Below, piece after piece: positions 22,372 to 25,397 of a stretch of 64,000 nt of DNA. The translations under genes and the position numbers were made by a program. Origin of the DNA: Malacoraja senta (taxonomy: Eukaryota); contig CM075994.1 in NCBI GenBank assembly GCA_038087875.1, forward strand, positions 7,318,001-7,382,000, written 5' to 3'. The notes under the pieces are model-generated. The model was not told the origin of the DNA and did no database searches. It saw only the letters and a list, made by a program, of their open reading frames with translations. Positions within the stretch are counted from its first letter, which is position 1. Each line of letters begins with the position of its first letter.

Positions 22372-25108
22372 CCTTCCACGGTACAGACATTTTGACAAAA
22401 AAACTTTTATATGTGTTATAATTTCAATTGCTTTTTTTTGTTTGTAGTTGGAAAAAGGGACAAGAAATAATCATAACATTTTCTGATTTTGCAAAGTCAC
22501 ACATATTATGTTTTGCTCGGGCAAACAATCAGAGTATTTTGAAAAGTATGCGTTCACCTTTTGAAGTATATTTCATTTTGATTTGAATTTAGAATGATGA
22601 AACCATGACATTAATAAAGGGGGTAGACAAAATGTTTAAGAAGGAACTGCAGTTGCTGAAAAACCGAAGGTAGATAAAAATGCTGGAGAAACTCAGCAGG
22701 TGCGGCAGCATCTATTGAGCGAAGGAAATAGGCAATGTTTCAGGGACGATACCCTTCTTCAGACTCGAAGAAGGTTTCGGCCCGAAACGTTGCCTATTTC
22801 CTTCGCTCCATAGATGCTGCCGCATCTGCTGGGTTTCTCCAGCATTTTTATCTACCACCTATTAATAAAGGGGGTATATGTTTGTGGAAACGTTACTTTT
22901 TTTTAAAGTAAGACGCGAGAAATCTAACATGCATTTGAAATATACATTTCAATGCACTGAGTCTCTTGCTCAGAGTAGGTGAATTGAGGACCAGAGGAGA
23001 GATTTAAGGTGAAGGGGAAAAGATTTCATAGGAATCTGAGGGGTAACCTTTTCCACATAAAGGGTGGTGGGTGTATGGAACAAGCTGCCAGAGGAGGTAG
23101 TTGAGGCAGGGACTATCCCAACATTTCAGAACCAGTTAGACTGATACATGGATAGGACAGGTTTGGAGGGATATGGACCAAAAGCAGGTAGTGTAGCTGG
23201 GACATGTTGGTGGGTGTGGGCAAGTTGGGCCGAAGGGCCTGTTTTCACACTGTATCACTCTATGACTACATTATACCTCCACCATGCATGAGTTTTATTG
23301 CCATATACTTAAGCATAGAAACATAGAAAATATGTGCAGGAATAGGCCATTCGGCATTTTGAGCCAGCACTGCCATTCAGTATGATCATGGCTGTTCATC
23401 TAAAATTAGTGCCCCTTTCCTGTTTTTTCCCCATATCCATTGATTCCTTTAGCCCCAAAAGCTAAATGTAACTCTCTCTTGAAAACATCCTGTGAATTGG
23501 CCTCCATTGCCTTCTGTGGTAGAGAATTCCACAGATTCACAACTCTCTGGGTGAAGAAAATTACAAATTGTCCGTTAGGTGTGTAGAATAGTGCTAGTAT
23601 ATGAGGTGATCACTGGTTGGCCGGCCAAAGGGCCCATTTCCACGCTGTATGTCTAAACTAATTAATCAGCTAATTATGGTGCAAAGTTCTGATCATGTCA
23701 CTGTGTGAAGTTACTGTACACTGAGGCAAAGGTCCATTGTTAGTGCTGTGGTCAGGATGAACCCCTGCCTTTAGCACTAAAACAACAACACACACAGATG
23801 GATACACCCCCCCCCCCCCCACTGTACAGATACCCTGATACATGAGCAGAACACAAAGTGCTGGAGGAACCGGCAGCATCTGGAAATGGACAGACGATAT
23901 TTCGGGTCATAGAGTAATAGAATTTTACAGCGTGGAAACTTGCCCACACCCGCTAACATGTCCCATCTACACTAATCCCATCTGCCCGCGTTTAGTCCAT
24001 ATCCCTCCAAACCTGTCCTATCCATGTACCCGTCTAGATGTTGCTTAAATATTGGATGTCCCTGCCTCAACTCCATCCTCCGACAGCTCGTTCCATACAC
24101 CCACCACCCTTTGTGTGAAAATGTCACCCCTCAGATTCCCATTAAATTACCCTCCCCCTTAATCTCCCGTTAATCCCCCCCCCCCTTAAACCTATAATGT
24201 TTATAAAGACTATAACTTATCAAGTTATAGCGAGACTTATAACGGGAGTCAAGACCGTCCCGTCAACGGAAGGCTCAAGGCCCACGACCGAGGAAGAACT
24301 AAGGGAAAGGACTTGAACTTTATTTCGCCTTCCATCACAGTGAGGAATGTGTAGGAGTCACTGGGGTGGATGTTCATGTTAAAATGTGTTTTTGAGTGAT
24401 CTGTTGCTTTTAATTGTATGACTGACCTGGCCAGTGAAATTCCTCGTATGTTGCAAAACATACTTGGCGAATAAAATCTGATTCTGATTCTTATAGGAGC
24501 AGAATTAGGTCATTCGGACCATCAAGTCTACTTCGCCATTCAATCTCTCCCTCCTAACCGCATTCTCCTGCCTTTTCCCCATTACCCCTGGCACCTGTGC
24601 TAACACATATACACCTATAAAGGTGCAGGAAAGCACTGCAGATGCTGGTTTAAACTGAAGATAGAAACAAAAAGCTGGAGTAACTCAGCGGGACGGACAG
24701 CATCTCTGGATCGAAGGAATGGGAGACCCTTCAGACTGAGCGTCAGGGGAGAGGGAGACACAGAGACACAGAGATAAGGAAGGTTAAGGTGTGACAACGA
24801 GACAAAGGGGATGAAGTTCGTGGAACATAGAATAGATCGTTGTTACCTAGTGACACCAAGGCAGAGCTAAAATGTAAACGGGGACAGGCAGACTGGTCGG
24901 AGAACTGGGAAGGAGGGAGGAATGGTGAGCAAGGGTTTCTTGAAGTTATCTAAGTTCCTCCAGCGTTTTATACACAAAATGCTGGAGTAACTCAGCGGGA
25001 CAGGCAGCGGCTCTGGAGAGAAGGAATGGGCGACAAGACCCTTTAGCTGAAGATTCCCGCATGTTTCGTTTCTTGTCCATTACTGGGACACAAACCTGCA
25101 TCACTCAC

Positions 25109-25310
25109 CGAACGAGGAAGCGGCCGTCTGCAGCTGTAAGGGGATTGTACCGTTGGCGATGGGACGAATGGTCTTGTTTGGCGCTCCCCCCGGCACAATC
25201 AGTGCTGAGTGCAGACACAGAACCTCACTGGACCGACACAACCCCGGCGCTAGGAGCCAAGATGTACCTTTCAGCAAACATAAGAATCGACTCCAACGCC
25301 AGCGGCGATA
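25109..25310 (-). other. Putative non-coding first exon of the stonustoxin-like gene (5' boundary approximate)
   Basis: Non-TE, CpG-containing island between repeats that ends in the consensus donor TTCG|GTGAGT (25108-25103). It lies downstream of TATA-like and ISRE motifs. The exon at 17566 has an acceptor that needs an upstream donor. Confidence 0.6.
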
Positions 25311-25325
25311 TCTGCAGTGAAAGGC

Positions 25326-25397
25326 TATATATATATTCTCCAGAGATCTCCACACCCAAGATTGGAAATAATTCCACAAAAATACACTTTCACTTTC
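25326..25397 (-). promoter_or_regulatory. Putative interferon-inducible promoter: IRF/ISRE GAAAGTGAAAGT (25386-25397), kB-like GGAATTATTTCC (25364-25375), TATA-like (TA)n (25326-25336)
   Basis: Exact IRF1/2-type consensus about 50 bp upstream of a TATA-like tract, in the same orientation as the donor and the gene. The ISRE is identical in the diverged inverted copy. Confidence 0.65.

Follow-up and report, generated by a model that had tools for sequence, protein, structure and literature searches.

A CpG-retaining island with an IRF1-type element, the putative promoter and first exon of a perforin-GTPase fusion gene in the skate Malacoraja senta

Where does transcription of a gene whose product joins a stonustoxin-like perforin to a GTPase begin in a skate, and what might drive it? 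In the 64,000-nt stretch of Malacoraja senta DNA that was analysed (the window), such a gene lies on the minus strand, and an initial annotation placed its promoter and first exon 7.5 kb upstream of the ATG-bearing exon, in an island said to carry an ISRE, a kB site, a TATA-like tract and a splice donor and to make the gene interferon-stimulated. As detailed below, the promoter and first-exon part of this reading is supported by CpG retention, by a sequencing depth like that of the gene family and by weak cover of the 3' end of the exon, but neither the kB arm nor an ISRE of the ISGF3 type has survived closer inspection.

The body of the gene is well delineated. Exon 2 (17440..17566, minus strand), located by tblastn with residues 1-30 of a homologue, begins with 39 nt of UTR and continues with codons 1-29 (ATG at 17527); the clean acceptor previously ascribed to it is present (...TTTCAG/A at 17566, the slash marking the exon boundary), and a donor lies at its other end. 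It reads as an internal exon because this acceptor is strong and repeat sequence lies ~80 nt above. Exon 3 (12836..15825, minus strand) is open over ~1,000 codons up to a stop at 12836, and encodes SNTX MACPF, helical and thioredoxin-like domains, a pair of FN3 domains and a GTPase of the AIG1/septin type. Pfam identifies SNTX MACPF (weakly), the stonustoxin helical domain, thioredoxin-like SNTX, two FN3 and a Septin/MMR_HSR1 GTPase; the Atlas groups the latter with AIG1/MMR_HSR1/Septin clusters at 0.96, and its matches to solved structures are weak septin ones (best E 0.004). The best protein matches of the long ORF come from Rhinoraja (82%), Amblyraja and Leucoraja. As in SNTX-like perforins (PMC8704401, PMC10566576), the first coding exon of the gene is short and the next one long, and its product retains the MACPF-FAT-THX core of stonustoxin, i.e. 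MACPF, helical (FAT) and thioredoxin-like modules. In contrast to stonustoxin itself, a ~700-aa venom subunit with a PRY-SPRY (PMC8704401, PMC10566576), it carries FN3 twice and a GTPase of the AIG1/septin type in the place of the PRY-SPRY, of which Pfam finds none in the product, and it is therefore not a venom-type stonustoxin subunit in the sense in which PMC10566576 defines one. The GTPase shares with AIG1/GIMAP-septin GTPases the G1 (GATGSGKT), G3 (DTPGFG) and TFAD motifs as well as Pfam matches to Septin and MMR_HSR1, but differs from them in being fused to a perforin-like module, in its altered SQT motif and in missing the C-terminal tail of the family. Distant loci (L007, L013 and L015-L022), whose best segments are 30-40% identical to the protein, cover it from about residue 1-3 to about residue 1200 within 3.3-3.8 kb, so that the perforin-GTPase fusion also exists far outside skates, apparently with few or no introns.

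The C-terminus deserves attention, since the ORF stops ~280 residues earlier than is typical of the family. In P0001, the Rhinoraja protein, 49 residues follow the FNNS motif, where 87 homologues have a median of 331, and a decayed remnant of the usual tail, which is coiled and cysteine-rich in the family, is scattered over three frames at 12184..12860 (minus strand). In addition, ~55 nt of SINE-like sequence lie in frame in the FN3-GTPase linker (13648..13704, minus strand), where P0001 also has a SINE-like insert, and the SQT motif, found in 98 of the 102 homologues with a G1, has changed in three sequences that keep G1, namely the window's ORF, P0001 and P0019 (G3 and TFAD are kept as well in the first two). 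A pseudogene reading of the early stop was considered, and is weakened by the finding that P0001 ends in the same residues as the window's ORF. This short C-terminus common to Rhinoraja means that the stop is not a fresh lesion, and the gene looks like a member of an old tail-less sub-lineage that skates have maintained, and not like a fresh pseudogene.

Upstream of exon 2 lies a non-repeat, CpG-rich island of ~440 bp (25050..25490, minus strand), which would comprise the promoter, exon 1 and the start of intron 1. The motif order first described for the minus strand is borne out, each motif lying exactly where it had been placed. Uppermost is GAAAGTGAAAGT (25397-25386, minus strand), an IRF1/IRF2-type element by motif match and by a 13-mer shared with the IRF1 site of PLAAT4. 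It lies 51 nt upstream of the TATA-like run and 277 nt upstream of the donor. We take the PRDM1 consensus to overlap this element. The exact 12-mer has two matches in 64 kb and none in 100 shuffles, the second match not being independent because it falls inside a full duplicate of the island. The looser GAAANNGAAA has eight matches in the window against 4.1 expected, while for a degenerate IRF1-like 12-mer, a motif picked post hoc, a third-order Markov model gives expectations of 0.064 per 64 kb and 0.0004 per 440 bp. The tandem GAAANNGAAA element of the island agrees with an IRF1 site, which is the motif that an IRF-element promoter is expected to carry.

The neighbouring motifs are less consistent with the class of promoter originally proposed. 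The presumed kB site, GGAATTATTTCC (25375-25364, minus strand), is a GGAA-N4-TTCC inverted repeat of a kind expected 3.3 times per 64 kb. It is neither a consensus kB nor a GAS site and, when compared with four kB patterns (GGGRNNYYCC and relaxed forms), it fits none of them; its counterpart in the second copy of the island also fails, and the sole relaxed kB match in that copy lies elsewhere, at 49367. The ISRE stands in part, since the motif is there and is of the IRF1/2 type, but neither island contains an ISGF3 ISRE of the GAAANNGAAACT type, and GAS sites are found in neither. A CCAAT (25361..25365, minus strand) and a GC box, GGGCGG (25455..25460, plus strand), are present in both copies. 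By the features tested, the predicted promoter is thus neither of the canonical ISRE class nor of the ISRE-plus-kB class, the latter module being real in mammals (PMC2175519). The TATA-like tract, TATATATATA (25335-25326, minus strand), was correctly recognized in this copy and is specific to it, the other copy reading AATAAATA; the letter at 25333, within the run, is in a relative's run (X6) that of the other copy.

Exon 1 (25109..25305, minus strand) is predicted to be non-coding, its putative 5' end being set ~30 nt below the TATA-like run. It would end at a donor, CG/GTGAGT in a TCG/GTGAGT context (25103..25110, minus strand, last exon base 25109), which is present as proposed and identical in both copies, but is not unique, ranking 8th of the 801 GT sites in 17567-31107 under a weight matrix. 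The presumed exon contains an upstream ATG at 25281 (minus strand) that opens an 18-codon uORF, whereas in the other copy the frame from the corresponding ATG, at 49266 (plus strand), is open up to the donor; such an ATG could tune translation. No Rfam match is found over 23500-27000. Within intron 1, a low-copy patch at 23713-23777 (minus strand), has a possible acceptor and a weak donor and might serve as a cassette UTR exon, but record 8 of run X1 crosses it unspliced.

The island is one of two. A full second copy at 49050..49510 (plus strand), with its IRF element at 49156-49167 and its donor at 49445-49452, was overlooked when the island was described as free of transposable elements. The description holds to the extent that the only self-match of 25050-25550 within the window, compared with up to 26 for the flanking repeats, is this segmental duplicate. 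The copies belong to an inverted duplication of ~6.5 kb at 91.9% identity (24610-31107 versus 49967-43502), which encloses a tandem duplication (27955-36213 with 35172-43429, 98.5%), and their promoters, being head-to-head, would point away from each other. Beyond 24610 the surroundings of the right copy and the left intron have only dispersed repeats in common, and tblastn with five homologues finds no family gene for the right copy in the remaining 14.5 kb of the window. Since relatives carry right-copy letters at four positions (25112, 25318, 25333 and 25400), the right copy may be nearer the ancestral form. The tandem duplication as a whole (27955-43429, a unit of ~7.2 kb at 98.5%) is either recent or an assembly artefact, and a disrupted LINE-like frame for reverse transcriptase is found in each unit (31578-34037 and 38778-41237, labelled by inspection). 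Further along, the window has a 200-N gap at 59505-59704 and, over 50000-64000, long purine-rich (GGA-type) tracts alternating with a recurring unit of ~60 nt, the copies of which are 68-81% alike.

Having two copies makes it possible to follow the fate of their CpGs. Observed/expected CpG is 0.86 in the island and 0.92 in the presumed exon, against 0.56 over window positions 1-50000 and 0.38 in the coding exon, and the GC content of the island is 51%; 7.7% of sliding 440-bp windows are as high in CpG as the island. Between the copies, decay to TpG/CpA affects 3 of 25 CpGs in the island (22 kept), compared with 59 of 160 in the flanks (101 kept; Fisher p=0.013), and in presumed exon 1 all 15 CpGs are kept and none has decayed. 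Total substitution is not lower in the island (6.5% versus 5.9% in the flanks, p=0.6). High CpG o/e, GC above 50% and reduced CpG decay are what an active, CpG island-like promoter would display, and the retention fits germline hypomethylation, without proving purifying selection. An argument for selection on the IRF motif from its conservation between copies was rejected, as 12/12 identity has a chance of 0.48.

Sequencing runs from relatives bear both on the repetitiveness of the island and on splicing. Eleven runs were listed, none of them recorded as RNA and none containing half of the sequence words, and four were compared with the window at 85% likeness; X1 is flagged 'probably DNA' and the RNA status of X4 is a guess. 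In X6, which reads through introns and in which depth is no measure of copy number, the listed sites have depths of 151-493 in the promoter part of the island, 2136 at 25112 (17 contigs), near the 3' end of exon 1, and 432-2669 in coding sequence, while repeat bins reach 5e4-6e6. The island lies far below SINE/LINE bins in all four runs, and this contrast, together with the single self-match, disposes of the idea that it is a high-copy repeat, which the initial annotation had named as fatal to its proposal. The depth at 25112, similar to that at coding sites, suggests that the 3' end of exon 1 travels with the gene family. This position is covered in all four runs (depth 21 in X1 and 9 in X4), and the IRF element is spanned by at least one X6 contig; X1 and X4 have no cover at 25318, 25333, 25400, 25422 and 25430, where X6 has contigs, but holes between contigs prove nothing. 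With regard to splicing, record 6 of X1 and record 16 of X4, which come from two studies and two organisms, depart from the genomic sequence at 15824, which coincides exactly with the leftmost position that the joint between exons 2 and 3 can take; they leave 98 and 107 letters over, respectively, too few to reach exon 1. Genomic contigs should continue through the acceptor of exon 3, as record 31 of X9 does, and contigs that stop at the joint are therefore a weak indication that spliced transcripts of the family (exon 2-3) are probably present in the relatives of both studies.

Comparison with more distant homologues has contributed little. A metagenome scan yielded 30 loci at 28-63% identity, three of which were left out for having <250 nt upstream; a strict IRF element is present upstream of 0 of the remaining 27 (shuffle mean 0.18), whose promoters may fall outside the contigs, and the result is uninformative at such distance. 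An apparent enrichment of a loose 10-mer (18 versus a shuffle mean of 5.2) was not accepted, its density being 0.38/kb compared with 0.24/kb inside and below the genes, and its matches A-rich. No counterpart of an exon-1 peptide is found either in the eight N-terminal extensions seen among 120 proteins or among proteins of 33-105 residues.

What, then, might the IRF element do? Its 13-mer core, GAAAGTGAAAGTG, is identical to the IRF1 site of the PLAAT4 promoter, which has been used for reporter and pull-down experiments, and (GAAA)GT(GAAA) is described in the same paper as a constrained IRF1 motif (PMC10201418). Because of this identity, an IRF input to the predicted promoter is well founded. 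Compared with PLAAT4-type IRF1 promoters, the skate site shares the 13-nt core and would be close to the putative start, but PLAAT4 has a longer tandem (PMC10201418), whereas the island has one site with two GAAA units, at which IRF binding is predicted. ISGF3/ISRE promoters such as those of IFIT genes have in common with it a proximal GAAANNGAAA element, a short first exon and a long coding exon (PMC3688568), but the skate island is without the GAAANNGAAACT form, a second site and a kB partner. The island can be regarded as a plausible ISG promoter that would act like IRF1-dependent ones.

Expression data from bony fish, in the sources cited, are in line with an immune connection. In trout, according to supplement file 3 of PMC12648952, two genes (ENSOMYG00000045130 and ENSOMYG00000011072) with the zebrafish-based annotation 'neoverrucotoxin subunit beta-like' and with TTN and SEPTIN4 as human best hits are classed as 'Non Conserved ISG'; VHSV up-regulates them in line B57 alone. 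The titin (FN3) and septin hits, alongside the stonustoxin-like annotation, suggest that these teleost genes, which are rows of a table (PMC12648952), may have the FN3 plus septin-type GTPase architecture of the skate gene. Stonustoxin-like transcripts also rise in reovirus-infected carp (+7.63 log2, with two neoverrucotoxin genes going down; PMC5465539), in sick, virus-infected barramundi (+5.7 and +7.8; PMC8249934) and in vaccinated charr (PMC6369366), and one in salmon is tied to alphavirus load (PMC7316828). Neither a zebrafish ISG preprint (10.1101/693333) nor a 2026 fish ISG review (PMC13030082) names the family in its main text, and it was likewise not found in one supplement file of PMC13355688 and six of PMC12263217. 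Within the mostly non-subscription literature searched, bioRxiv supplements excluded, neither a promoter of this kind nor ISG status for this domain fusion was found described.

We consider it fairly probable that the MACPF-FN3-GTPase gene has its promoter and non-coding exon 1 in this CpG-retaining island, that IRF1/IRF2 drive a transcript spliced from exon 1 to 2 to 3, and that the gene is an immune one, inducible by interferon or pathogen sensing. In this scenario, IRF2 would probably occupy the GAAAGTGAAAGT element at rest, and IRF1, induced by type I or type II interferon or by pathogen sensing, would bind it ~80 nt above a start near 25305. An exon 1 of ~200 nt would then be spliced over a repeat-filled intron of 7.5 kb to the ATG exon at 17566, and onwards to exon 3, the promoter and exon being duplicated together with the gene family. 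The product, in which a perforin-like protein is joined to a GTPase of the AIG1/septin class, would be cytosolic and would most likely act in cell-autonomous immunity, not as a venom subunit.

Two other readings accept the island as a functional element. It could be a true promoter and exon 1 whose IRF element sets basal or cell-type expression, through resting IRF1/IRF2 or repression by PRDM1, with no appreciable induction by interferon. A single IRF site unaccompanied by an ISGF3-type ISRE, GAS or kB would be in keeping with this, as would the reports that IRF1 regulates constitutive as well as induced antiviral defence (PMC10201418) and that infection of carp raises some members of the family and lowers others (PMC5465539). 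However, the apparent trout relatives are classed as ISGs (PMC12648952) and, although mammalian IFIT promoters usually have two or more sites, zebrafish IFIT promoters with a single ISRE respond to both IFN and poly(I:C) (PMC3688568), which makes a purely basal role unlikely. Somewhat more doubtful still is the idea that the island is a regulatory element other than exon 1 of this gene, whether an enhancer, the start of an ncRNA or a leftover promoter, with the gene starting in an intron repeat or being silent. The joint 25109-17566 is indeed absent among the joints listed (15 of ~13,000, all from repeats), five donors within presumed intron 1 score better (21101, 21222, 21995, 18894 and 24427), the right copy, with no gene within 14.5 kb, means that orphan island copies can exist, and the gene has an altered switch-region motif and no family-type tail. 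Against this, all five competing donors sit in bins of high repeat depth in X6, in which the 3' end of exon 1 has the same depth as the coding exon, and an ORF open over ~1,000 codons, with an end identical to that of a Rhinoraja protein at 82% identity, hardly speaks for a silent gene. That the island is an unrecognized transposable element carrying the motif passively, for which its repeat-filled surroundings and the 17 X6 contigs at 25112 might be adduced, is very improbable given its depth far below SINE/LINE bins in all four runs, an in-window copy that is a segmental duplication and CpGs that are kept, unlike those of flanking repeats.

If the island is indeed an IRF1-type promoter and first exon, its value lies in the gene it serves; there is nothing unusual about a promoter with an IRF site. 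A non-venom role of stonustoxin-like proteins is regarded as an open question (PMC12107551), and a poorly studied gene family would come under interferon control in cartilaginous fish. With a mapped and mutable IRF element in such a fish, control of the perforin-GTPase branch by interferon could be tested directly and, taken with the trout entries, such control would suggest an origin before the split between sharks and bony fish. Tentatively, one may go further and speculate that stonustoxin-like perforin-FN3-GTPase fusions are an overlooked, ancient family of IRF1/interferon-driven effectors of jawed vertebrates that was lost from mammals, in which a GTPase of the GIMAP/septin class would, within a single chain, target a MACPF pore to pathogen membranes or assemble it there. 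The family would have expanded in skates by joint duplication of promoter and gene, and the tail-less, switch-altered member, which has been kept in Rhinoraja, might be induced by interferon and regulate its full-length paralogues or act as their decoy.
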